Source of the DNA: a virus
Taxonomy: Duplodnaviria > Heunggongvirae > Uroviricota > Caudoviricetes
Virus record (IMG/VR): IMGVR_UViG_2681813318_000003
DNA: 64,000 nt
Direction: 5' to 3' (one strand)
The notes under the pieces are model-generated. The model saw only the letters and a program-made list of their open reading frames with translations. It had not been told where the DNA came from and searched no databases. Position 1 is the first letter of the stretch. Each line of letters opens with the position of its first letter. The translations under genes were made by a program, and so were the position numbers. Below, piece after piece: positions 7,979-56,836 of the stretch.

Positions 7979-9235
7979 CTATCGAGAACCACCAAGAATA
8001 ACACGGTTTTTGACTGGATACCTACGATGTACTGGATAGCCCAATGCGTCTGCACTATGCTCAATGCCACCTGTCTTATCCATATCTCGTGTTCCAGGCT
8101 TGTAGATGACTTTTTCCAGTGAATCAATCAAATGCTTGCACTTCGGATCGATATACAGCCGGATATCTCCAGATGCGGTCATCAGCATTCGGTTAACAGC
8201 ATTAACACGATCCGCAATTGGCGGGTGCTTTTTCGAATAATCGACACGTAAGAATCCCTTCTCTTTGAATATGTCGACGTCAGACTCCCCGCGAGCATGT
8301 TGGCGATAAGCACCTGCCGGATCTGGAAATATCGTTATCTGTGATTTCCAGCGCCAGAAGCGTCTCTCAAGCTCATCACAAACCTCTGCCGTGTTAGAGG
8401 AAAAGAGCACCAATTCATCAATTGCCCATAGTTCACCATTTGGCTGAGGTTGCAAAATTACGGAAGACATCGGGTCAATGTTGAAGTCCTGCCCTACCCA
8501 TATAGGTAACCGAGGGTTGAACTGAAGCGGTTTTACATGCACGTTACGATCGAACGGGTAGTAAACGCGCCCGGACATGTTCTCAAAGCTGGCCAGGTAC
8601 TCCTGAGCGAACGATTTGGGGTCCATATCGTTCTTAGCAGCTTCAATTTCCGCCGTAGGTACAAACGGAGAATCGGCAGTTACAAACTGCCAGCTCTTCC
8701 ACTGTCCCTTTCTTTGCAGCTCTACGTTCTGGCCTATAGTCCACAGTTTGTGAAATTCCGAGAAGCCTTTTGGCGTACCAATGATCAGTGCACCGCCGCG
8801 TGTCGATGAAAGAGTAGGTCGTAACACCTTGTACCAAGTGTCAGCCTTCATATCCTGAAATTCATCAAGCACTACAAAATGCAACGCTACGCCGCGCAGA
8901 GTGTCAGGCTTATCAGCACCTTTGAGGGCGATCTCCGAACCGTTCTTCAACACGATTGTCATCGTGGTGTCGTTCTTTTTCCTAACCCACTTACGAGGCA
9001 GAACTTCCTGTAGATCGTCCCACAAAATCTGGCGAGCCATCTGGTAAGTAGGAGCGACATACCAGACCCTTTGCTTTTTTTCCTTTGCCGCCGCACGAAT
9101 AATAGTGGAGATCGACAACCGGGATTTTCCCCAGCGTCGACCAGCACAAACAACTTTAAATCGATGCGGAGACTGGAAGACTTTCATCTGTCCAGAATGC
9201 AGTTGCACAAGACTGAGCGAGGACGGGATTGCCAT
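7979..9235 (-). CDS. Terminase large subunit
   Basis: N-terminal Walker A-like VVCAGRRWGKS, ATPase plus nuclease size class, start overlapping the stop of the upstream small-subunit gene. Confidence 0.7.
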   Translation of the reverse strand: MAIPSSLSLVQLHSGQMKVFQSPHRFKVVCAGRRWGKSRLSISTIIRAAAKEKKQRVWYVAPTYQMARQILWDDLQEVLPRKWVRKKNDTTMTIVLKNGSEIALKGADKPDTLRGVALHFVVLDEFQDMKADTWYKVLRPTLSSTRGGALIIGTPKGFSEFHKLWTIGQNVELQRKGQWKSWQFVTADSPFVPTAEIEAAKNDMDPKSFAQEYLASFENMSGRVYYPFDRNVHVKPLQFNPRLPIWVGQDFNIDPMSSVILQPQPNGELWAIDELVLFSSNTAEVCDELERRFWRWKSQITIFPDPAGAYRQHARGESDVDIFKEKGFLRVDYSKKHPPIADRVNAVNRMLMTASGDIRLYIDPKCKHLIDSLEKVIYKPGTRDMDKTGGIEHSADALGYPVHRRYPVKNRVILGGSR

Positions 9236-9867
9236 TATTCGTCCTCCCCTTCACTTCCATCATCTGTCGCATCAAATTCGCTTAGAGCTTCTTCTTCCAA
9301 CGTCTCAAGCAATTCGTCATCGATGATTTCAGGCTCGTCGTCTTCCTGACGTAATTTCGCCACCTGGGAAGGCGTAAGCTCACCAAATACCAGATTCGGA
9401 ATTTCTTCCTCGTCATTTTCCGCATGATCCATGCCCAATGCTTTGGACGAAACTTCAAAGCATTTTGCAAGGGTATTACTGGCTCTCTGTAAGCTCTTGA
9501 GAGAATCCTCAATCGCCCCTAAAGGCTTACCCTCACGTTTGGCCGTAGTGACTTCGACCATCACCATCTGCCCCAACGCATACGCCCAGCCGTCATAACG
9601 TGTACGACGTTCTTCTATCTTTTCTGCACGGGCTTTAGCGCGAAGCTCTGCGTCAGATTTAAGAGACTCACGAACCATCTTCCCAACAGAGTCCGCGCCT
9701 TTCTCTAATCCTCGCTTTTTGAAATGTCTGGAGAGTGTTTCACGACGAATGCCGTACTCTTCCTCCAGCTTTGAGAGTGTATATTCGCCTGACGTCCATT
9801 TGGCTTCAGCTTCGGCCCACTCCGCTGGTGTCAGGCGAGTTTTTACCTCGTCTTTTTCGACCGTCAT
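9235..9867 (-). CDS. Terminase small subunit (DNA-binding, acidic C-terminus)
   Basis: 210-aa ORF directly upstream of and translationally coupled to the large subunit; SD AGAGGGA before ATG 9867. Confidence 0.5.
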   Translation of the reverse strand: MTVEKDEVKTRLTPAEWAEAEAKWTSGEYTLSKLEEEYGIRRETLSRHFKKRGLEKGADSVGKMVRESLKSDAELRAKARAEKIEERRTRYDGWAYALGQMVMVEVTTAKREGKPLGAIEDSLKSLQRASNTLAKCFEVSSKALGMDHAENDEEEIPNLVFGELTPSQVAKLRQEDDEPEIIDDELLETLEEEALSEFDATDDGSEGEDE

Positions 9868-15185: not shown

Positions 15186-15650
15186 ATGAAGTCTCCCATA
15201 CTGTTCACTTTCTGTTCTAAAACTAACATGAAATACTCGCTTCTCCCTCTACTAACGTTACCAGTGTTGATGCTTACCGCGTGCCAATCACGTCCAATAT
15301 CAATCCATGACGCCAAACCAGCACCGCAGGCCAAAGTGTTCAAGTATCAAAGCGCAGCGCCAGCTACGTTGGTGGTAATGAGAGACACAGGTTTTGTAGG
15401 AGCTGGATGTGATGCTTCCATTTTCATCAATGGCGAAACTGTCGCAAAACTGGCTACAGGCGAAAAAGCGACTTTCCATTTCAATGCCGGAGAATTAATT
15501 GTGGGTGCATCTCTTGAAGGTGCAGGTTTATGTGCTCTAAACCCCGCTCGTCAAGAGCGAGAAACGACTCTGAAGAATGGAGACACAAAAGCGTTCAGGG
15601 TGTTCACCAGCAATTCTGGTAACATCGACATTCTGCCAACAACTCTGTGA
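15186..15650 (+). CDS. Lipoprotein (lipobox LTAC), possible superinfection-exclusion factor
   Basis: Signal peptide LLPLLTLPVLMLTAC with Cys lipobox; SD AGGGAGA before ATG 15186. Confidence 0.5.
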   Translation: MKSPILFTFCSKTNMKYSLLPLLTLPVLMLTACQSRPISIHDAKPAPQAKVFKYQSAAPATLVVMRDTGFVGAGCDASIFINGETVAKLATGEKATFHFNAGELIVGASLEGAGLCALNPARQERETTLKNGDTKAFRVFTSNSGNIDILPTTL

Positions 15651-15654
15651 TGAC

Positions 15655-16179
15655 ATGACAACCAAAGATATTACCTACGGTATCCAAGCTGAACTCTTGC
15701 CGCGAGATTACACTAACGTTGAAAAACTACTGATGTTCTGGCGCAGAGAACAAATTCCTGTAAGGGTCACTCTCGAAGATGGTCAGGCGTTTTGCATGTA
15801 CGTTTATGGCCTCATGCCATCTCGCAACAAAGTTGACCTTTGCCCAGCCCCTTTTGACAAAGAAAATCGTATAAGGCTCCCACTTGAACGCATTAGTACA
15901 ATTGAATCAGGTGTGGTTGACAGTATCGCTCACGATTTCAAAGGTCGATTAACAGTTCACCCTGATTATGTCGATAATCGGCCATCACGCCGCGATTTTT
16001 TTGCAATTTGCAACCAAGCCTACAAAGCAAACAAATCTATAAGGGTGTACATGGCGGATGGCCGTGAAATTGAGGGGGTGTCAGCAGGCGCAGATGCTTG
16101 TCAGGTTACACTACGTGTCGAGAACGGTAGAAAAATAGTTGTTTTGTTCGATTGGGTTGAACGAATTTTGCCTTTTTGA
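15655..16179 (+). CDS. Hypothetical protein
   Basis: ORF 15577..16179 trimmed to ATG 15655 (MTTKDITYG), which is coupled to the preceding stop TGA. Confidence 0.4.
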   Translation: MTTKDITYGIQAELLPRDYTNVEKLLMFWRREQIPVRVTLEDGQAFCMYVYGLMPSRNKVDLCPAPFDKENRIRLPLERISTIESGVVDSIAHDFKGRLTVHPDYVDNRPSRRDFFAICNQAYKANKSIRVYMADGREIEGVSAGADACQVTLRVENGRKIVVLFDWVERILPF

Positions 16180-17929: not shown

Positions 17930-17980
17930 AATCGAGCGCTCACTATGGGCGTTTTTTTCGTTTCCAATACTTCCACCATA

Positions 17981-18010
17981 ACGCGCCAATGATGGCGCTT
18001 TTTTTATTGT
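17981..18010 (+). terminator. Rho-independent terminator
   Basis: GCGCCAATGATGGCGC hairpin followed by T8; a related hairpin with a T7 run sits at 17933-17958. Confidence 0.6.
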
Positions 18011-18384
18011 CTTTGACTCAAGCCAACAACATAAAAATAAGCGCCAAAATAACGCCATAGACGCACTTTTATATCCTTACCAGTACATACCCATTACTTA
18101 GCGCATTAACGCACTTAAATCGCGTTATATTGCGTTATGGTGTATGGTTAATCATTGGCTTTTATTCTTGCTATGTGATCCGCGTTTAATTGTCGGCGCG
18201 GATCGGCATTTTGTTTTGTTCCGTATCCGCTCGCGTATTATGTGCGCGTGATTTTTCACATAATCACACCACTTAATCACGTATGTGATTACGCTACGAA
18301 AGAAATCTGGATGTCTCAGGCGACGAAAGTCATCATAATTTTCCCCGCTCACCTGTCCGACAACCGCTGGTTGGATTCCACCAG

Positions 18385-18535
18385 CTTCCCGATGTTTTTT
18401 CTATATAAAGGCGAATGCAGCCGTTTCCCGAAAAAATCCTGGCCGTTCCCCGTCGGCTCATGAATACGTTCCTCGCCGTTTCTGAAAATTTCCCTGCGGC
18501 AGCTGGTGGCTATATAGAAAGGGCCGTTTCTGGCC
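18385..18535. repeat. Cluster of about five degenerate direct repeats CCGTT(T)CC(C)nGAAA
   Basis: CCGTTTCCCGAAAAAA, CCGTTCCCCG, CCGTTTCTGAAAATTTCCCTG, CCGTTTCTGG seen in tandem; second cluster at 21550-21690 in the same orientation. Confidence 0.5.
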
Positions 18536-18545
18536 CTCTTCTCAG

Positions 18546-19870: not shown

Positions 19871-20266
19871 TTAAGCGAATACGCTTTCAGGGATTAAGGT
19901 GTCGGCAGGAATGCCAGAGGTAATGCGCAGACCGTACTGGCCAATCCAGGTGGTGCTGGTGTTCAGGCTGGAGGCGAATACGGTGTTAACCATATTCATC
20001 ATGGTTTCAAACACCTCTTCATCAACCTGGCGGAAGTAGTTCTCGATTTTCAGCAGCAGCGGGTCAGTTGCATCGAGAATGGACTGGTATTGAGTCGCGT
20101 ACTCGCCGCCGGAGGCATCACCTTTACGCACGATCGTACTGGCCTGTACTTCGGCACCAGTTTCGGTGTTGTACGTAACAACGGTGATTTTTGCCACATT
20201 CTTACCTTCGGCGGTTTCAGAGGCATAGTAAACATCAACTGTCAGTTTTTCGCGTTTAACGGTCAT
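19871..20266 (-). CDS. Hypothetical early protein
   Basis: 131-aa ORF with SD GGAGAG; class B palindrome and a terminator lie upstream. Confidence 0.4.
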   Translation of the reverse strand: MTVKREKLTVDVYYASETAEGKNVAKITVVTYNTETGAEVQASTIVRKGDASGGEYATQYQSILDATDPLLLKIENYFRQVDEEVFETMMNMVNTVFASSLNTSTTWIGQYGLRITSGIPADTLIPESVFA

Positions 20267-20330
20267 TTCACTCTCCGTAGTGTCTTGATTATTTTTCTAT
20301 TTTATAATCGTAGGTATGTACTTACAATAC

Positions 20331-20358
20331 AAAAAAGCCCCGTAAGGATGGCGGGGCT
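20331..20358 (-). terminator. Rho-independent terminator
   Basis: AGCCCCGCCATCCTTACGGGGCT hairpin followed by TTTTTTG on the minus strand. Confidence 0.6.
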
Positions 20359-20392
20359 GTCGTACTGTCGACTAATTACCACTTGCACATTA

Positions 20393-20704
20393 TCAGGCTA
20401 TTGCCATCACTGATGCTCTCTGAATTTCTTGCTGGGCCACGCGGTTAACTTCCATCAAGGCCAGTTCGAGCTGATGTTCCGGCCACATTCTTTGAAATGC
20501 CACCCATCCTTTTCCACGCTGGCGACGAACATTCATTACATAACGAGTAAAGGTGTTTTTATCGAAAGACACCGCTGTTTCACGGAACAGACGAATAGAA
20601 GTTCCATTGGCAACGATGTCTAGCAAAGTTAATTGAGCAACCAGTGCAGGCTTCTCTTTTCTCTTCTGGTCTTTGTCCAGACCAAGAACCAATGATTTTT
20701 TCAT
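20393..20704 (-). CDS. Hypothetical early protein
   Basis: ORF trimmed to ATG 20704 (MKKSLVLG) with SD ACGGAG; class A motif overlaps the leader. Confidence 0.4.
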   Translation of the reverse strand: MKKSLVLGLDKDQKRKEKPALVAQLTLLDIVANGTSIRLFRETAVSFDKNTFTRYVMNVRRQRGKGWVAFQRMWPEHQLELALMEVNRVAQQEIQRASVMAIA

Positions 20705-20857
20705 CACAACTCCGTAAACAACTTGTTTTCTCAATGGCGTAAATAATACCAGTAAGAAAACGGCTACAAAGCATAATGATCAGGTGCATGATCGATATGC
20801 AGGTTCCTCCCTGCGGCTATAGAGAAATTAAGCCAGCATTGCTGGCTTTGGTTGGGG

Positions 20858-21187
20858 TTACTCGAATACTTCAAGAAACTCCTGAACGTCCCAATGCTGG
20901 ACGAGGTGAAGATAGACCTTAGAAATCACGTCATTTTCGCTATCGCATGTGAAGTAGTACTTCTGGCTGCGGTTGTATGTGTCCACACAAAATTCGCTCA
21001 TATCCATAAAGTCAGCATCTTCACCCATGTCGCAAATCATCAAAGCAGGTGCGTCATCACGAGTCATCAGCTCAAGCACCCACCGCGAATTGATCAGAGT
21101 GGAAGACCAACCTTCTAACTCATAAAACTGATCAAACTCTTTTTGAGTTAATTTCTTGATTTGGTTGATGTCGATATTTGCAAACAT
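20858..21187 (-). CDS. Small acidic protein (candidate anti-restriction or DNA-mimic type)
   Basis: ORF trimmed to ATG 21187 (MFANIDI) with SD AAGGA; D/E-rich, about 109 aa; class A motif upstream. Confidence 0.4.
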   Translation of the reverse strand: MFANIDINQIKKLTQKEFDQFYELEGWSSTLINSRWVLELMTRDDAPALMICDMGEDADFMDMSEFCVDTYNRSQKYYFTCDSENDVISKVYLHLVQHWDVQEFLEVFE

Positions 21188-21198
21188 AAAGCAATCCT

Positions 21199-21236
21199 TA
21201 AACAACTTGTTTTCTCGTTGGTGTTATTATCGCAAT
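21199..21236 (-). promoter_or_regulatory. Class A promoter/leader motif (representative copy)
   Basis: Minus-strand reading TTGCGATAATAACACCAACGAGAAAACAAGTTGTTTAA: extended -10-like TGnGATAAT followed by palindrome AAACAAnTTGTTT 10-30 nt before the ATG. Related copies near 19045-19086, 19807-19827, 20714-20750, 24007-24075 (two), 31872-31892 (inverted), 34786-34820, 35501-35537, 36230-36268, 46450-46492 (two), 58371-58408. Confidence 0.5.
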
Positions 21237-21549
21237 AACGCACAGGCGAAAAAGGATTTTATTCCGGTGAATGTTGTTTTGGCAGTGAGTTTTCAGGTTC
21301 AGTATCGAGTACACTTTTTACATTATTCTGATTTAGTGGCCGAAGGTGGCTGGTGGGCAGAATAATCCTCTCCCCGAAAACCTACTGAAATCGATTGTGA
21401 CCCGTTGGCTGTCTGGCACAATTACGCTGTAGCTGGGCATTCAGAGGGAATCCAGCGGTAAGTAAGTTCGCCTGCACGTGAGCGCCTCTCTTCTTCCCGC
21501 ACATTACAGGTGGGTAGCCGCAACTCTCCCTCACGCTATACCGGTACGC

Positions 21550-21690
21550 CGCCGTTCCTGAACCGGCATCGAGCCTTTTCCCGAAATCCACACAGGCAAC
21601 TCGACCGTTTCCCTGAAAACCTCCAGCCGTTCCCCGAAGGCAACCCAGCCGTTTCTGTAGCGGGATGCAACCTTTTCCCTGTATGGACCG
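21550..21690. repeat. Second cluster of CCGTT(T)CC(C)nGAA(A) direct repeats
   Basis: CCGTTCCTGAACC, TTTTCCCGAAATCC, CCGTTTCCCTGAAAACC, CCGTTCCCCGAAGG, CCGTTTCTGTAGC, TTTTCCCTGTATGG; same orientation as cluster 18385-18535. Confidence 0.5.
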
Positions 21691-21699
21691 AAGGCTGAC

Positions 21700-22750
21700 C
21701 GTAGGGGTGTTACGGGGGATAAAATCAGGAGTTGAATAAATACGAAAAAGGAGGCGACACCCCTCCTTCCCTCCCCACTTATACATACCTGGCTTCTTCG
21801 CTATACACGTTGTGTTTTCTGCGTGTTTTATCTGTCTCAACCTCTCTATGGGCGTTAATGCACACTCCTTCCAGAACGTTCTATACGGCGACTATTTCTG
21901 TTGGTGAATTGGGTGTGTTGTTTTCTCTGTCGGTGTATGTGGTTTCGTTAGTTTTGCGGTGGTTCTTCTATGGGGTGTTCTCGTCGTTTTGGTGATTGTT
22001 CTTCTCCGTCTATGGAGTAATGGCAGGTGGGCGATTCCTTTCGTTATTGTGTTTGAGTTGTTTGTCTGGAGTGCGTGAAGGGCTTTTGTAGTTATTCGTG
22101 TATTGGGTAATGGCGTTTCCCGTGATTGTTATGTTTCGTGTCTTTTGGGATTGAGAGAAACCTTGCGGTTACAGGCTTCGTTGGGGTTTCAGTGATTCTG
22201 ATGTTTCTTCGCTGTTTGGGTAATGGCGTGTCGTGGGTATCGCGCGTATGAATGTTTTCGGATTGCCTGTGAAAGTTAGGTTGGTTCTCCGGTAGCCTGG
22301 GAAGAAGAGGTGGGTCTTTTCGGTAGCCTGCCATAAAGAGGTTGGTTGTTTTGGGAATGGCATATGTGTTATTTAGTTGTTTTGTTATGCCTGAAAATAA
22401 GTTGTTTATATGGTTATGTAACGCAACGGGAACGATTTTGAGCGTGTGTTTTTGTTGGTAGTGTGTTGGGTCGTCTGTGGTGAAAATTGGACGCTGTGGC
22501 GCTGTCTGCTGCGTAGAATTACGGGTATAAGCAGTGATGTGTGAAAACGTCAATTTTTTAGACCAAATCGGGTGAAAGCGTTGATGTTTCGTTGATCTGT
22601 TATTCAGTTGTTTTCTTGATTGTATAAACAACTATAACTTATTGATATTTAAGGATGTGATTGCGGGTATGGAAGGGGAGTAGTGGCGATCAACGGATTC
22701 TTATAGAAAAGAATCAAATTGTGACCGCCATTATCAATGAGTTGCAACCG
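21700..22750. other. About 1-kb non-coding tract with strong G+T skew on the plus strand
   Basis: No credible ORF; recurring GGTAATGGCG-type units at roughly 100-bp spacing (about 22010, 22095, 22215) and CGGTAGCCTG..AGAGGTGG duplicated. Confidence 0.4.
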
Positions 22751-23320
22751 TTAGTTGTTCAGATAAACATTTGGAACACGGACGTAGAAGTTCCTGTCGC
22801 CGGTAAGTTCCAGAGTAATGTTAATGTCATTACCATTGTCTAGTGTAGCCGTTGCTCTATAGAACTTATCCGTCACCTTGTCCTCTATTGTCACCTTCAT
22901 ACATTTTGGTGCAGTCGAACCGTTATTCTCTTTCAGAATAGTTGTCACGAGAGGGCAGGCTGCTTCTTCAAGAGCAACCTCGTCCTTGTGTGGGATGCCG
23001 ATGAAGATAACCCAAGCCAGCGACGCAACGATTATGATAAATGGCACTCTGCTGCCTTTTGTAATAGTCGCGCGCTTCCAGAGATAGACAGGCAGGAGGA
23101 ATACCCCCCATAGAATTGAAGGTGGTTCACAGCCAGACTCCGATAGAGCCATTCTGTCAGCTACTAACAAACCGATGGTAGTTACACCCCCAATTATAAT
23201 AGCGTAATTGGTATACTCTTCCGGCGATACTCCAAAGAAGAAAGGCATGAACGCTAGAATCCACGCATAAATGTTATTCAGAGGTTTTGTTTGTTGGTTC
23301 TGGGTTTCCATCACATCCAT
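22751..23320 (-). CDS. Membrane protein (about three TM helices plus C-terminal soluble domain)
   Basis: 189-aa ORF with hydrophobic segments IYAWILAFMPFFFGV, AIIIGGVTTIGLLV, FIIIVASLAWVIFIGI. Confidence 0.45.
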   Translation of the reverse strand: MDVMETQNQQTKPLNNIYAWILAFMPFFFGVSPEEYTNYAIIIGGVTTIGLLVADRMALSESGCEPPSILWGVFLLPVYLWKRATITKGSRVPFIIIVASLAWVIFIGIPHKDEVALEEAACPLVTTILKENNGSTAPKCMKVTIEDKVTDKFYRATATLDNGNDINITLELTGDRNFYVRVPNVYLNN

Positions 23321-23472
23321 TCCATCACATAAAAATCGCGTTTATATATTATCAATTTTCTCACTTGTATAACCTAAATACGCATCCGTTTATCAATCCA
23401 CCTTCCACAAACATCAGCTTTAGCTATGAAAAATAACAATCTCAAAGTGAAAACCATTATCATAGGAAACGA

Positions 23473-23658
23473 TTAGATGAGATGGTCTAATTCATCATCT
23501 ATCATTGCTTTAACACTTGAGTCATTAACCCCGTATTGATTTATGAACCGTTTCAGCTCCGGTGAAAACTGAAGGTAGATATCGTGAGCGTTTTTCACTG
23601 TAGGTTCAACGCCACGCATTTCAAGCGCCTTTAGTAGATATGAGTCTTCTTTAAGCAT
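23473..23658 (-). CDS. Hypothetical small protein
   Basis: 61-aa ORF with ATG at 23658. Confidence 0.3.
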   Translation of the reverse strand: MLKEDSYLLKALEMRGVEPTVKNAHDIYLQFSPELKRFINQYGVNDSSVKAMIDDELDHLI

Positions 23659-23694
23659 AAATTCTCCGTTGTCTAGTATGAAGCGATTGCCGGA

Positions 23695-23994
23695 TTACCA
23701 TTGCCAGCACTCTAGCCCTTCAACGACCGGTGCACCACAATCAAAATGTACAGAGTCAAAGCCTACATCAAGTACTTTCTGAATGTTCGCAATCGCGCCC
23801 TCGGATATACCATATCGACGCAACTCATCTTTCCAGTCATCGTCCTGTAACCCGGCGTGGACAATGCAACCGTACTCAATTTGTGAAACCCAATCCAGCT
23901 CATTGCTTGCGATCATGAATCGGCGAGCATCTTCCTCTGATGTATGAGATGAGCTGATCAATGCCACCTGGTAGGCTTGGGTAATGTTCAACAT
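23695..23994 (-). CDS. Hypothetical early protein
   Basis: ORF trimmed to ATG 23994 (MLNIT) with SD GGAGTGG; two class A motif copies upstream. Confidence 0.4.
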   Translation of the reverse strand: MLNITQAYQVALISSSHTSEEDARRFMIASNELDWVSQIEYGCIVHAGLQDDDWKDELRRYGISEGAIANIQKVLDVGFDSVHFDCGAPVVEGLECWQW

Positions 23995-24006
23995 TTCAAC
24001 CACTCC

Positions 24007-24075
24007 AAAACAAGTTGTTTTCTTATGTGGTTTATTATCTCCATCAACAAAAGGCAGAAAACAAATTGTTTTAGG
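24007..24075 (-). promoter_or_regulatory. Two tandem class A motif copies next to the host-like block
   Basis: AGAAAACAACTTGTTTTGG and AAAACAATTTGTTTTCTGCC on the minus strand, ending about 35 bp from the metG terminator. Confidence 0.45.
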
Positions 24076-24109
24076 TACTGTGTAAATCAGAAGGGATTGT
24101 GTCTATATG

Positions 24110-24136
24110 AAAATGCCCGGCGTGTTGCCGGGCATT
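24110..24136 (-). terminator. metG rho-independent terminator
   Basis: AATGCCCGGCAACACGCCGGGCATT hairpin followed by TTTCAT on the minus strand, about 20 nt after the metG stop. Confidence 0.6.
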
Positions 24137-24155
24137 GCGAAGAGAGGTTGTTTAA

Positions 24156-26189
24156 TTACTTAACCTGGTGGCCAGGTTTAGCACCAGCATCCGGGCTTAA
24201 CAGGAAGATATCTTTCCCGCCGGGGCCAGCAGCCATCACCATGCCTTCAGAGATACCGAAGCGCATTTTACGCGGAGCCAGGTTAGCCACCATAATTGTG
24301 TGACGACCAATCAGTGCCTGTGGGTCTGGATAAGCAGAACGGATGCCTGAGAAGACATTACGCTTTTCACCACCGAGATCCAGCGTCAGGCGCAGCAGCT
24401 TGTCAGAACCTTCAACAAACTCTGCGTTTTCAATCAGCGCCACGCGCAGGTCAACTTTAGCGAAGTCGTCAAAGGTGATGGTTTCCTGAATCGGGTCGTC
24501 TGCCAGTGGGCCAGTTACCGGTGCGGCTGTGGCTTTCACTTCTTCTTTGGATGCTTCCACCAGTGCTTCCACCTGTTTCATATCGATACGGTTATACAAT
24601 GCCTTGAACGGATTCACTTTATGGCCCAGCAGCGGTTGCTGGATACCATCCCAGGTCAGTTCTGTATTCAGGAATGCTTCTGCACGTTCAGTCAGTTTCG
24701 GCAGTACCGGTTTCAAGTACGTCATCAGCACGCGGAACAGGTTAATGCCCATAGAGCAAATCGCCTGCAGATCGGCATCGCGTCCTTCCTGCTTCGCCAC
24801 CACCCACGGAGCCTGTTCATCAACATAGCGGTTAGCCAGGTCAGCCAGTGCCATGATTTCACGGATAGCTTTACCAAATTCGCGGCTTTCCCATGCTTCG
24901 CCAATCACTTCAGCGGCATCAGTAAAGGTTTTGTACAGTTGCGGGTCAGCCAGTTCGCTTGCCAGCACGCCGTCAAAACGCTTGTTGATAAAGCCTGCAT
25001 TACGGGAGGCCAGGTTAACCACTTTGTTCACGATATCGGCATTCACGCGCTGAACGAAATCCTCCAGGTTGAGATCGATATCATCAATGCGCGAAGAGAG
25101 TTTCGCAGTGTAGTAGTAACGCAGGCTGTCGGCGTCAAAATGATTCAGCCAGGTGCTGGCTTTAATAAAGGTGCCGCGAGACTTGGACATCTTCGCGCCG
25201 TTCACCGTCACATAGCCGTGAACAAACAGGTTGGTCGGCTTGCGGAAGTTGCTGCCTTCCAGCATGGCAGGCCAGAACAGGCTGTGGAAGTAAACAATAT
25301 CTTTACCGATGAAGTGGTACAGCTCGGCGGTGGAGTCTTTCTTCCAGTATTCATCGAAGCTGGTGGTATCGCCGCGCTTGTCGCACAGATTCTTGAAGGA
25401 ACCCATGTAGCCAATCGGCGCGTCCAGCCAGACGTAGAAATATTTGCCCGGCGCGTTCGGAATTTCAAAACCGAAGTAAGGCGCATCGCGGGAGATATCC
25501 CACTGTTGCAGGCCGGATTCAAACCATTCCTGCATTTTGTTCGCCACCTGCTCCTGCAACGCGCCGCTGCGGGTCCATGCCTGCAACATTTCGCTGAAAG
25601 AAGGCAGATCAAAGAAGAAGTGTTCGGAATCACGCATTACCGGGGTAGCGCCAGAAACCACCGATTTCGGCTCGATCAATTCAGTCGGGCTATATGTTGC
25701 GCCGCAGACTTCACAGTTATCGCCGTATTGATCTGGCGCTTTACATTTCGGGCAGGTGCCTTTTACAAAACGATCCGGCAGGAACATGCCTTTTTCCGGG
25801 TCGTACAACTGAGAGATAGTGCGGTTTTTAATAAAACCGTTCTCTTTCAGGCGAGTATAGATAAGCTCAGACAACTGACGGTTCTCTTCGCTGTGCGTCG
25901 AGTGATAGTTGTCATAGCTGATGTTAAAGCCTGCGAAATCAGTCTGATGCTCATGACTCATTTCGCCAATCATCTGCTCCGGTGTGATACCAAGCTGCTG
26001 TGCTTTCAGCATGATCGGCGTACCGTGGGCATCGTCGGCACAGATGAAATTAACCTCGTGGCCGCGCATTCGCTGGTAACGAACCCAGACATCAGCCTGG
26101 ATGTGCTCCAGCATATGGCCGAGGTGGATTGAGCCGTTAGCGTACGGCAGCGCGCACGTCACCAGAATTTTCTTCGCGACTTGGGTCAT
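24156..26189 (-). CDS. metG: Methionine--tRNA ligase (host-type)
   Basis: 677-aa protein starting [31 protein letters not shown], class I HIGH motif, zinc knuckles CPKC/CEVC, KMSKS motif. Near-identical (a handful of substitutions) to Escherichia coli MetG as recalled from memory, not from a database search. The longer ORF to 26318 is an upstream read-through. Confidence 0.95.
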
Positions 26190-54841: not shown

Positions 54842-54918
54842 ATGTCATTTTTCTGTGATTGTTAGCCGAGGCAACGATAACCCACCAGGTGCGCCGAAGG
54901 TAGTAAATGCCTGTTTTA

Positions 54919-55145
54919 ATTATTCACATATCCACAGGATAGATCCTAATAAAGAGATCCATAGATAGATCCTTGTATAGATCAAATAAGATCCCCGATC
55001 GCTGTAAGCCGCGCCACGACTGGTCTGAAGCCATGTTCATGTATGCTACCAGCGGTAATTGATAGTCTGTCAACGGTTCGCCGTATGCTGCCAACTGTTT
55101 TTGGTATGCTGCCAGCGGCAAATCAAGTATGCTGTCAGCGGTTGA
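54919..55145. promoter_or_regulatory. Plasmid-type replication origin: tandem DnaA boxes, GATC-rich repeats, upstream iterons
   Basis: TTATTCACATATCCACA (two overlapping DnaA-box matches), six GATC sites within about 60 bp in AGATCC units, then four iteron copies GTATGCT(G/A)(C/T)CAGCGG at about 55041, 55083, 55104, 55127. Confidence 0.7.
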
Positions 55146-55162
55146 ATGACAAAGGTGTCCAC

Positions 55163-56257
55163 ATGTCCACAAAAAATAAAAAAGGTAAAAATAACAAAGA
55201 AGTAGAAGATAATCTCGACAACTTTGAAGAAGGTTCCCTTGAATTGTACACAGGGGAACTTGTCCCTAATAGCAACAATACAGTCCAACCAATTGCGTTG
55301 ATGCGGCTGGGGTTGTTCGTGCCCACGCTCAAGGGGACAAAATACAGCAAGCGTAACAAGCCAAATGAGATCGATGCTTCAAAGGAGCTTGTTCAGCTCG
55401 AAGTAGCCCGTTCTGAAGGTTATTCCGATATCAAGATAACCGGTCCTCGTCTCGACATGGATCATGATTTCAAAACGTGGGTGGGCGTTGTGCGTTCGCT
55501 GGCAGAATACGGCGAACCTAACGGTCGTGTCGAGTTAAGCATCACGAAATTTGCGAAGTTTTGTGGCTATCCATCGTCACAGATCCGCAAAACACTCCGC
55601 GACCGGCTTACAAACAGTCTTTTGAAGATCATGCGTACAACTCTGTCTTTTCAGAGAACGTATGAAGAAAAGAACGTCGACGGCTCTAACAAGATCTCGC
55701 TTCTGATGGTGCACCTCATCAATAGCGTGGACTACAACGAGCAGAAAGATACGGTGGTGTTCTATGCAGAACCGAAGCTGGCCGAACTATATCGCTTTGA
55801 CCATAAGGTTCTTTTGCAGTTAAAGGTTATCAATAAGCTACCACGCAAAGAAACAGCACAGGCTCTGTACACCTTCATCGAAAGTCTTCCAACCAAGCCT
55901 GCGCCGGTATCGCTTGCTCGATTACGTGCGCGACTCAATTTGAGTAGCAGGAATGTCAGCTCGCAGAATCAGACTATACGTAACGGCTTAAAAGCTCTCC
56001 AAGATTTGGGCTATCTCGAATACAGCGAGATTAAGCGAGGGCGGTCGATCTATATCCAGATTCACAGCCGCAATCCAAAACTCAAAGTCGCACCGCCAAA
56101 ACCTGAAGACATCGAACCCAAAAAACCAGATGAGAAAGCTGGGGAAATTGATGCCAAACAGAACATTATCAACAAGATAACCGAACTTTCGCAGAATTTG
56201 ACGCCTGAAAATATCAAGATGATTGAGATCCTTTCCAATAGTCTCAAACTGCTTTGA
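55163..56257 (+). CDS. repA: Iteron-binding replication initiator (RepA-like)
   Basis: 364-aa ORF flanked on both sides by same-orientation iterons; start taken at ATG 55163 (MSTKNKKGK) after SD AAGG; architecture matches P1-type incC-repA-incA replicons. Confidence 0.7.
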   Translation: MSTKNKKGKNNKEVEDNLDNFEEGSLELYTGELVPNSNNTVQPIALMRLGLFVPTLKGTKYSKRNKPNEIDASKELVQLEVARSEGYSDIKITGPRLDMDHDFKTWVGVVRSLAEYGEPNGRVELSITKFAKFCGYPSSQIRKTLRDRLTNSLLKIMRTTLSFQRTYEEKNVDGSNKISLLMVHLINSVDYNEQKDTVVFYAEPKLAELYRFDHKVLLQLKVINKLPRKETAQALYTFIESLPTKPAPVSLARLRARLNLSSRNVSSQNQTIRNGLKALQDLGYLEYSEIKRGRSIYIQIHSRNPKLKVAPPKPEDIEPKKPDEKAGEIDAKQNIINKITELSQNLTPENIKMIEILSNSLKLL

Positions 56258-56792
56258 TATGCTGTCAGCGGTGAAATGTATGCTATCAGCGGCTATTTTT
56301 CTGAAAAGTATGCTGTGAACGGTTAAAGATATGCTACCAGCGGTATAGTGAGATAAACGTATGCTGTGAGCGGTAAATCATCTATCACCACTCAATGCTC
56401 TGGCATACCTCCCCAGTGGTTACTAACCTCGAAGAGTGCATTCCATATAGGTTTGCGCTCACTAACATTCTATTGCCGTTGCGCTGATTGCTTGTAGTGA
56501 AAGGCATTTATTGCCTGCTGCTCCCTGATAGAACGTATGCTGTCAGCGGTGTTTTATTGAGGAATTTTTGTTTGGATATGCTATCAGCGGTAATTAATGG
56601 TATATGTCAGACCTTCGTATGCTGCCAGCGGTAATTTTGTTCTGGTTATAACCATACCGGTACACATTATTCATGCAATGTCTTAAGTATGCTGTCAGCG
56701 GTAAAAAATCGAGTAAAGTATGCTGTGAGCGGTGAGATAAACTCTCGATATGCTATCAGCGGTAATTGATTGTGTATGCTGTCAGCGGTGAC
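56258..56792 (+). repeat. Downstream iteron arrays (incA-like), about 12 copies
   Basis: 19-bp units (G)TATGCTGTCAGCGGT(A/G)A at about 56258, 56279, 56308, 56329, 56359, then after a 150-bp spacer at 56535, 56576, 56617, 56687, 56718, 56748, 56774; irregular spacing. Confidence 0.8.
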
Positions 56793-56836
56793 GACTATGA
56801 AATATGACTGCGGCACGTGCCGCAGTCAGTTTGCAT

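Follow-up and report, generated by a model that had tools for sequence, protein, structure and literature searches.

We describe here a conserved non-coding module of about 1.3 kb (~21370-22745) in a 64,000-nt stretch of viral DNA (IMG/VR record IMGVR_UViG_2681813318_000003), hereafter the window, to whose positions all coordinates refer. Judged by its sequence, the window is an SSU5/pHCM2-type phage-plasmid, and a preliminary description of the region was right to place it in a phage-plasmid context. That the module is real and strongly constrained is clear, and its leftward orientation and likely transcriptional nature are reasonably supported. As to mechanism, we infer, with a probability of roughly 0.4, that it is a repressible, untranslated leftward transcription unit that would act as a Rho-loading platform, polar barrier or attenuator. 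The module is absent from all annotation and, with no description of it found in the searchable literature, is apparently undescribed. L-numbers below designate the homologous sequences or lineages with which it was compared.

The most conspicuous property of the module is its strand asymmetry. Measured in 500-nt segments, G+T content peaks at 0.732 (start 21901) against a 64-kb mean of 0.500 (standard deviation (SD) 0.034), which is 6.8 SD above the mean, and the ten most G+T-rich segments of the 64 kb all lie inside 21751-22700. Within the tract, GC skew rises to +0.48 and AT skew reaches -0.57, with a G+C content of 40-58% across the module. The plus strand of the skewed core (21863..22637, read as a minus-strand feature) is G+T-rich, and an RNA transcribed leftward from it would be C+A-rich and G-poor (39% A, 32% C, 14% G and 15% U). 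In this minus sense, a C/G ratio of at least 1.5 is sustained over 775 nt (21863-22637), the next longest such run on either strand of the 64 kb being 241 nt. The extreme G+T skew that had first drawn attention to the tract is thus confirmed, 21863-22637 being the most strand-skewed stretch of the 64 kb; the limits originally given for it, 21700-22750, were slightly narrow for the conserved non-coding module as a whole.

The tract is non-coding. No PGAP gene call falls within 21188-22749 in a 99%-identical plasmid, and the 'hypothetical' open reading frames (ORFs) drawn in the tract by two phage records contradict each other. A minus-strand ORF of 179 codons exists at 22092-22631; across 10 lineages, however, open frames of at least 70 codons shift in place and length in each, and no ORF is conserved. 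Alignments of the lineages contain many indels whose length is not a multiple of three, and the tract has no period-3 signal above that of shuffled sequences. With neither a conserved ORF, nor 3-nt periodicity, nor a PGAP gene, the characterization of the tract as ORF-free holds.

Five blocks of the tract (21540-21800, 21870-22130, 22290-22460, 22520-22625 and 22680-22745) are mostly 69-86% identical, with spacers of 34-57% identity between them. In two neighbouring genes compared with the window, third codon positions are 36-49% identical and first and second positions 69-84%. The excess of the blocks over third codon positions argues that the tract is functional non-coding DNA, and the 1.3-kb module, being constrained about as strongly as first and second codon positions, belongs to the core of phage-plasmid biology. 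The skew is itself conserved: seven divergent homologues have a G+T content of 0.64-0.73 across ~800 nt, and overall it is retained at 0.60-0.73, L087 included. This Logan assembly, whose neighbouring protein is 51% identical, is the most divergent relative that we met, and it retains ~900 nt of skew together with the iterons, the promoter-like core and the right-edge hairpin described below and the TTGAAT block, that is, the conserved sequence GTTACGGGGGAT..CTTGAAT(A/T)(A/T)AT(A/G)CG at 21700..21741 (strand not assigned). In the substitution spectrum, examined for signs of selection on composition, G<->T forms the largest difference class (25%), which does not decide the matter.

The module is also widespread. 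A sensitive search placed it in 836 plasmid records, of which 428 are from Klebsiella, 224 from Escherichia, 90 from Enterobacter, 49 from Salmonella (pHCM2 included), 25 from Citrobacter and the rest from others. Hardly any of these records have an annotated feature beneath the tract, and it is carried as well by phage SSU5 and by Klebsiella phages. Among phages, Escherichia phage Cyrano (98%) and other SSU5-like phages match the region, as do hundreds of E. coli plasmids, ~110 kb in size and not predicted to be mobilizable. Clinical Escherichia, Klebsiella, Salmonella and Enterobacter commonly harbour phage-plasmids of the SSU5/pHCM2 type.

The tract is silent in lysogens, with an expressed unit on either side. 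The expression values are those of Cyrano, 98% identical here, in strain LF82 under five conditions (PMC9928086, Table S1, a reanalysis of GSE154648), given as log2(FPKM+5), where FPKM denotes fragments per kilobase per million mapped reads. CYRAN_102, the gene just right of the tract, stands at 5.6-9.2. CYRAN_103 (window 22276-22632) has the floor value of 2.32 (FPKM 0) in LB and never exceeds 4.3 in the remaining four conditions; CYRAN_104, an ORF drawn over 21382-21786, stands at 2.6-4.7, and CYRAN_105, the first operon gene to the left, reaches 7.8 (PMC9928086). In FPKM, the signal falls from ~50-590 in CYRAN_102 to 0-14 in CYRAN_103, a drop that coincides with the right-edge hairpin in counts whose strandedness is not established. 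Transcription from the right side thus appears to halt at the module edge. Since the operon is expressed at roughly FPKM 200 against at most ~15 in the tract, it starts downstream of the tract; for this leftward operon of small genes (20858-21187 and genes further downstream), a consensus scan places a candidate promoter at 21256..21285 on the minus strand.

Four kinds of asymmetric signal, all leftward, together bound a putative unit of ~770 nt. At its right end, a promoter-like element on the minus strand (22524..22553) consists of TTGACG (22553-22548), an 18-nt spacer and TATACC (22529-22524), with a predicted start near 22516 directed left into the tract. The pattern TTGAC(G/A)-N18-TATA(C/T)C is present in every lineage, L087 included (29 sequence variants), its spacer fixed in length and variable in sequence. 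Position 6 of the -10 element is C in all lineages, in place of the final T expected of a sigma-70 promoter, and because this T is missing a consensus promoter scan does not report the site at 22553-22524; we regard it as at best a weak or factor-dependent sigma-70 promoter. Two direct CGTTGAT boxes (22579..22596, plus strand) are likewise kept in all lineages including L087, and the first of them pairs as an inverted repeat with the -35 region (AAAACGTCAA...TTGATGTTT).

The same right end carries a motif that recurs throughout the genome. The 13-bp palindrome AAACAAnTTGTTT occurs at 15 sites in the window (9908, 9933, 19049, 19813, 20716, 21200, 22395, 24008, 24059, 31878, 34786, 35503, 36232, 46454 and 58373) against 0.55 expected, nearly all of them 10-40 nt 5' of minus-strand start codons. 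It is often preceded by TATTAT or GATAAT, and a cross-lineage alignment of one neighbouring gene reveals a conserved TATTAT followed by the palindrome and then by a Shine-Dalgarno sequence. An asymmetric extension of the motif, ATAAGAAAACAAnTTGTTT, stands in gene sense before many minus-strand genes, among them those for the small terminase, nrdB, the DnaB-like helicase, a ParA-like protein and each small gene left of the tract, and it has the same sense in the right core of the tract. The tract copy (22395-22407, minus strand) has one mismatch in the window and is perfect in other lineages; a ATAAGAAAACAA-type half site (22375-22389, minus strand) adjoins it, and a further half site at 22606-22617 (minus strand) shares its leftward sense. 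A 23-nt direct repeat on the minus strand (22364-22386 and 22595..22617, 87% identity, 231 nt apart) has its second copy upstream of the promoter-like element, and this copy bears a AAGAAAACAA-type half site. Neither a ribosome site nor an ORF follows the palindrome or the half sites of the tract. From its distribution, AAACAAnTTGTTT probably serves as operator for a global regulator of the phage-plasmid, and, being genome-wide, it offers a direct handle on the regulatory circuit of the element.

Hairpins stand at both edges. The right-edge hairpin (22683..22733, minus strand) is two-tiered, lies just downstream of the last variable gene and has no U-tract after it; in 13 of 13 sequences it is more stable in the minus sense (-13 to -20 kcal/mol) than in the plus sense (-9 to -17 kcal/mol). 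Its inner stem changes by lineage around a constant CUAUAAG loop, and L087 has another stem of 10 bp. Similarly, the left hairpin (21742..21776, minus strand), terminator-like, its 5' arm rich in purines and its 3' arm in pyrimidines/U, is more stable in minus than in plus sense (13 sequences), the preference of both hairpins for the minus sense being due to G-U pairs. A terminator-like pattern is recognized in the left hairpin of the window and of the Klebsiella lineage, but not in that of the pHCM2-type L007, and L087 lacks the hairpin. A purine run of 17-21 nt is conserved at the 3' end of the putative leftward RNA.

Apart from these two hairpins, the only structures that are kept, the tract does not resemble a structured RNA. 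Read in the minus sense, the RNA has almost no predicted structure (-107.8 kcal/mol over 801 nt, or -0.13 kcal/mol per nt); compared with shuffled sequences, folding across the tract gives z = +0.5 for the plus and -1.8 for the minus strand, neither strand faring better, and sliding RNAalifold over 120-nt windows on both strands nowhere yields a structure conservation index above 0.59. The Rfam search recommended in the preliminary description produced no relevant family: a scan against Rfam 15 gave, within 20000-24500, a single chance match to a miRNA outside the tract (E = 0.62).

We suggest that the G+T skew is the mirror image of an untranslated leftward transcription unit. Its right end (22370-22745) would be a control region built as it is for the element's own genes, with the promoter-like element and the copies of the palindrome and half site; ~770 nt would then be transcribed into a C+A-rich, G-poor and almost structure-free RNA. 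The unit would end at the hairpin with its U/C-rich tail (21776-21742); just past this hairpin come an array of iteron-like repeats and the small-gene operon, which has a promoter of its own. Rho binds untranslated, C-rich, G-poor and unstructured RNA to terminate transcription. Since naked RNA of this composition is a substrate for Rho loading, leftward RNA polymerase, whether coming from the accessory genes or from the tract's own repressible promoter, would be released by Rho inside the tract, and the module would thereby separate a hot spot of expressed accessory genes from the conserved operon and the repeat arrays to its left. Among the features of a Rho utilization (rut) site, at least ~80 nt of C-rich, G-poor RNA that is unstructured and untranslated is found here, over 775 nt. 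A barrier or attenuator of this kind would explain why the skew has the sign and extent that it has, why the RNA would be neither structured nor translated, why hairpins stand at the edges, why the module lies where conserved and variable genes meet and why transcript levels drop. We further propose that the promoter is active, probably following induction, that the transcript is acted on by Rho and that insulation is the function under selection.

Several points weigh against this interpretation. The transcript, its start site and its dependence on Rho are all predictions; the promoter, whose -10 element ends without the nearly universal T, gives no signal under any condition of the sole data set, for which strand-specific counting is not established. 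Known Rho loading sites span ~80-150 nt, and 775 nt exceeds what a barrier needs. Neither this length nor the depletion of U beside that of G is accounted for, and a barrier requires neither the strictly oriented, conserved GTAATGGC motifs nor the 31-nt repeats described below. The left hairpin is weak in pHCM2-type lineages, and L087 has no minus-sense terminator. Moreover, transcription of CYRAN_102 appears to end at most ~110 nt past its stop codon, at the right-edge hairpin and so before most of the C-rich tract. The comparison with known Rho-dependent terminators (lambda tR1, trp t', long Rho-sensitive leaders) is mixed in the same way. The tract shares with them an untranslated, unstructured, G-poor stretch with C in excess of G after an expressed gene, a stable upstream hairpin where trimmed 3' ends are expected, and a steep fall in transcript, but it is 5-10 times longer than known rut regions, is depleted of U as well, and carries conserved co-oriented motifs and apparently a promoter of its own, its link to Rho being one that we infer. 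If the polar barrier is real, accessory genes that are expressed could, thanks to it, be exchanged beside silent lytic genes without activating them.

The boundary itself is sharp. Conservation breaks off at ~22745 in every lineage compared (L004-L010), and the genes that follow vary: a membrane protein in the window, a 1191-nt ORF in pHCM2, and elsewhere a GIY-YIG nuclease, DUF4145 or IS5075. From these comparisons, the right edge of the module is the border of an accessory-gene hot spot, and the resistance and defence genes of these phage-plasmids sit in the variable region that begins exactly there. In L013-L015, which are large non-phage Klebsiella IncFIB/IncHI1B plasmids, only the right half of the tract is present (~3700-4460 of L014), cut by an IS3-family remnant; a segment with psiA flanks it on one side, and DUF262 and type I restriction-modification genes on the other. 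This arrangement is evidence that accessory modules of phage-plasmids move to other plasmids along with the boundary element. The proximity of psiA had suggested a single-stranded DNA promoter of the kind found in conjugative leading regions (Frpo/ssi), in which the -35 and -10 are rebuilt by a long imperfect hairpin; we found only a 9-bp stem around the -35 element and rejected this idea, because the psiA-adjacent copies are IS-truncated fragments of a Klebsiella phage-plasmid tract and because the tract forms no long promoter hairpin.

Whether the leftward RNA could act in trans, rather than through its own termination, bears on one of the options raised at the outset, a long non-coding RNA. 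That option fits best of those proposed but on the opposite strand, the signals being leftward and the RNA C+A-rich, not G+U-rich, as well as silent in lysogens. In such a scheme, which we consider unlikely, the RNA made after induction would use its repeated GCCAUUAC(C/U)C units and its composition to titrate a factor that binds single-stranded RNA, either of the host (for example Rho) or of the phage. A unit of ~770 nt bounded by a promoter-like element, operator-type motifs and a terminator-like hairpin, its near freedom from structure, the four to five strictly co-oriented 8-mer copies per element in all lineages but L087, and the silence in lysogens expected of a lytic-phase product would all suit a decoy. 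The binding signatures that we tested are nevertheless not enriched: Hfq-type ARN runs in the minus-sense RNA are as frequent as in shuffles, GGA, which in loops is, besides A-R-N or AAnAAnAA runs, a binding motif of protein sponges of the CsrB/CrcZ kind, is not prominent in the tract, and complementarity to the G/U-rich R1 seed of GcvB, also considered and rejected, equals that of shuffled sequence. L087 has the 8-mer swapped for ATGGCAGGTA, and no Rfam family matches, CsrB/Rsm included. The likeness to CrcZ/CrcY of Pseudomonas and to the CsrB/RsmY sponges thus lies in a non-coding RNA of a few hundred nucleotides with a short motif repeated in an unpaired A/C-rich context; unlike in those RNAs, GCCAUUAC matches no known binding site and neither ARN nor GGA is enriched. 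A more specific version, in which an abundant ~770-nt RNA present after induction is a decoy for Rho or another host factor that binds naked RNA, relieving silencing and termination over many short units, strikes us as very unlikely. Its protein counterpart would be the Rho inhibitor Psu of phage P4.

The R-loop suggested in the preliminary description fares worse, as it requires rightward transcription and we found no rightward promoter in the window, in L007 or in the Klebsiella lineage; being C-rich, a leftward RNA would favour Rho loading over R-loops.

The oriented repeats that the Rho-loading interpretation leaves aside are nevertheless a constant part of the tract. GTAATGGC is its most repeated 8-mer, with 34 copies over 10 lineages and none on the opposite strand, and every lineage except L087, where the repeated motif is ATGGCAGGTA instead, has four to five co-oriented copies per element. 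In the window, plus-strand copies lie at 22017..22024, within a degenerate unit of ~28 nt (TTCTCCGTCTATGGAGTAATGGC), at 22107..22114 and at 22220..22227, followed by a degenerate fourth unit, GGAATGGC, at 22354..22361; three of the window's six GTAATGG sequences are packed within 200 nt. The intervals of 90, 113 and 134 nt mean that the units recur roughly every 100 nt without strict periodicity, and Tandem Repeats Finder reports no array in the tract. Thus the unit quoted earlier as a ~100-bp periodic repeat, TTGGGTAATGGCG, is real, but the periodicity is not. A tandem pair of 31-nt repeats (22290..22351, plus strand), with three copies in some lineages, contains CGGTAGCCTG in each copy.

Such motifs could instead work at the level of DNA, with GTAATGGC, the 31-nt repeats and the iterons binding one or more phage-plasmid proteins whose nucleoprotein complex might serve, for example, in silencing, in pairing or in looping between two iteron-like arrays, A and B (described below), and with the skew as a by-product of packed co-oriented sites. 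The strict orientation and conservation of the motifs, an inverted GTAATGG in the conserved region beside array A, the position of arrays A and B on either side of an operon and the transcriptional silence of the region all speak for such a scaffold. We nonetheless consider it quite unlikely, given that the motifs make up less than 15% of the tract while the skew is uniform over 775 nt, poorly conserved spacers included, that the tract has no helical periodicity, curvature or phased or bent DNA, and that no candidate binding protein was identified.

The CGGTAGCCTG copies at 22290 and 22321 invite a different comparison, with the ops element GGCGGTAGnnTG that recruits RfaH: positions C3-G8, T11 and G12 match, and G1 and G2 do not. 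In ops, only a G2C change is neutral, and the positions that matter most are G5, T6, G8 and T11 (PMC5995543). A rightward leader in which two or three CGGTAGCCTG copies served as ops sites in the non-template strand could promote processive transcription into plus-strand defence genes, such as the DUF262 and type I restriction-modification genes that lie directly right of the tract in Klebsiella lineages, and nearly all lineages have at least one perfect copy. This reading is highly improbable. In the window, as in most lineages, the genes that come next on the right side lie on the minus strand, the search for a rightward promoter mentioned above was negative, every other oriented signal points left, and CGGTAGCCTG is missing in L087; the chance of matching eight fixed bases in sequence of this composition is ~0.03 per tract, uncorrected for the many motifs compared. 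With RfaH-dependent ops/JUMPStart leaders the tract therefore has in common the core CGGTAG..TG, its two to three copies and a long untranslated region, and differs in its strand, opposite to that of all other signals, in the unmatched G1 and G2, and in having no promoter upstream and mostly no operon downstream in that direction.

Left of the skewed core, the module contains an iteron-like array of its own. Array B (21551..21680, plus strand) comprises six copies of (G/A)CC(G/T)TT(T/C)C(C/T), kept in all lineages and spaced start to start by 21-22 bp in four of five intervals and by 31-32 bp in the other. Array A (18420..18490, plus strand), with three copies, lies at the far end of a five-gene operon, and in the ~94 kb scanned the motif is restricted to these two arrays. 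The idea that an iteron-like box might serve one of the neighbouring promoters as an activator site at the -35 was dropped, the box occurring once and in the opposite orientation. Array A belongs to a repeat-rich intergenic region of 600 bp (17930-18545) between convergent operons, conserved in pHCM2 too, which also holds two terminators, AACGC/AGCGC-type repeats, inverted repeats and the inverted GTAATGG (18091); it is a candidate origin or regulatory site. A Chi sequence (GCTGGTGG, plus strand) stands beside each array, at 18502-18509 and 21349-21356, and both are kept in most of the divergent lineages, the density of Chi being ordinary (13 in 64 kb). In the plus sense, the iteron array region (21456-21691) is a 236-nt run of C in excess of G, the second longest on that strand, so that rightward transcripts, too, would run into C-rich sequence. 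A plus-strand gene of 80 aa is aimed into this region in pHCM2-type lineages.

We rejected the tract as plasmid origin because the initiator gene repA (55043-56257), flanked by its own 19-bp iterons (GTATGCTGYCAGCGGTAAT), lies 33 kb away, array B being unrelated to these in sequence. The P1/RepFIB-like origin there (54900-55160 and 56258-56800) has a DnaA box, a GATC-rich stretch and ~20 GTATGCTGYCAGCGGTAAT copies on both sides of repA. With RepFIB/P1-type iteron origins, arrays A and B share direct repeats of ~10 bp, two-turn spacing and an arrangement in two separate arrays; they differ from them in having no adjacent rep gene, DnaA box or GATC cluster, the true origin being at 54.9-56.8 kb.

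With the plasmid-type origin elsewhere, the lytic origin is still unaccounted for, and a lytic origin was another role first proposed for the tract. Leftward transcription might activate or prime initiation at the purine-rich block, hairpin and iterons of 21540-21790, as it does at the transcription-activated origins lambda ori, P1 oriL, T4 oriF and ColE1 RNA II, with the skewed tract providing an unstructured displaced strand for helicase loading. We hold this to be doubtful. Array B, with its approximately two-turn spacing, abuts the tract, and array A is found at a distance of 3 kb, among the repeats of a conserved region; the phage-plasmid encodes its own RNase HI, DnaE, DnaB-like helicase and ligase, and the conserved purine run stands where the 3' end of the RNA would be. 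On the other hand, no initiator gene was identified beside the arrays, the five genes between them having no known family; there is no AT-rich unwinding element at the module, and scans of the tract for DnaA, IHF and KOPS sites yielded nothing conserved, all DnaA-box matches having one mismatch. The leftward RNA, being C-rich, is unfavourable to stable R-loops, and the plasmid-wide GC-skew profile tracks gene orientation without a turning point at the tract. We know of no origin that features a G+T skew over 800 bp. The resemblance to transcription-activated or RNA-primed origins (also T4 oriG and the mitochondrial control region) therefore consists in a promoter reading through a long untranslated stretch to a purine block and repeated sites, in a strand-asymmetric non-coding control region and in an RNase HI encoded by the element, whereas the tract RNA is C-rich instead of G-rich, an unwinding element is lacking, and initiator and initiation are predicted at most. 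Were either a lytic origin or a decoy RNA true, it would fill a gap in the plasmid-to-phage switch.

More improbable still than an RfaH leader is a packaging site (pac or cos), as had been proposed, or a T5-like injection stop ~12 kb (11-12% of the genome) from the end of the virion DNA. The tract is a long non-coding region with repeats, and it would lie 11.6-12.9 kb from the junction near terS if that junction is the genome end, the first-step-transfer segment of T5 being a similar fraction of its genome. Against packaging, the terminase genes (7979-9867) lie at a distance of 12 kb, and the junction of the SSU5 record is beside terS, 133 nt upstream of this small-terminase-like gene. Against an injection stop, the start of that record may be mere convention, and the stop region of T5 is AT-rich with palindromes and DnaA boxes, unlike the tract.

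In the left part of the window, a 'transcriptional regulator' gene of the plus-strand operon (~15577-16179, plus strand) encodes, in all lineages examined, an FljA-like protein (Pfam Flag1_repress, phase-1 flagellin repressor), a hint that flagellin of the host may be switched off by these phage-plasmids. Prompted by this gene, we compared the repeat unit of the tract with the fliC 5' leader and found a 9-nt match no better than chance matches in the window. PHROG and Pfam place ten neighbouring proteins, including those of the five genes between arrays A and B, among proteins of unknown function, and a search for structural relatives of a confidently modelled 160-aa protein encoded between the arrays found none.

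Taken from the 99%-identical plasmid pUTAK-6-1, the gene layout runs from tail, capsid, portal and terminase genes (0-10 kb) through ParB-like genes, a helicase and small genes (10-21 kb) to the gap that holds the module. To the right of the gap follows the variable block, with metG, an apbC-like gene, an S24 peptidase, a theta subunit and, in some relatives, restriction-modification genes, and beyond it come genes for nucleotide metabolism and replication. The membrane-protein gene and the early-gene block between which the tract had been placed match this layout.

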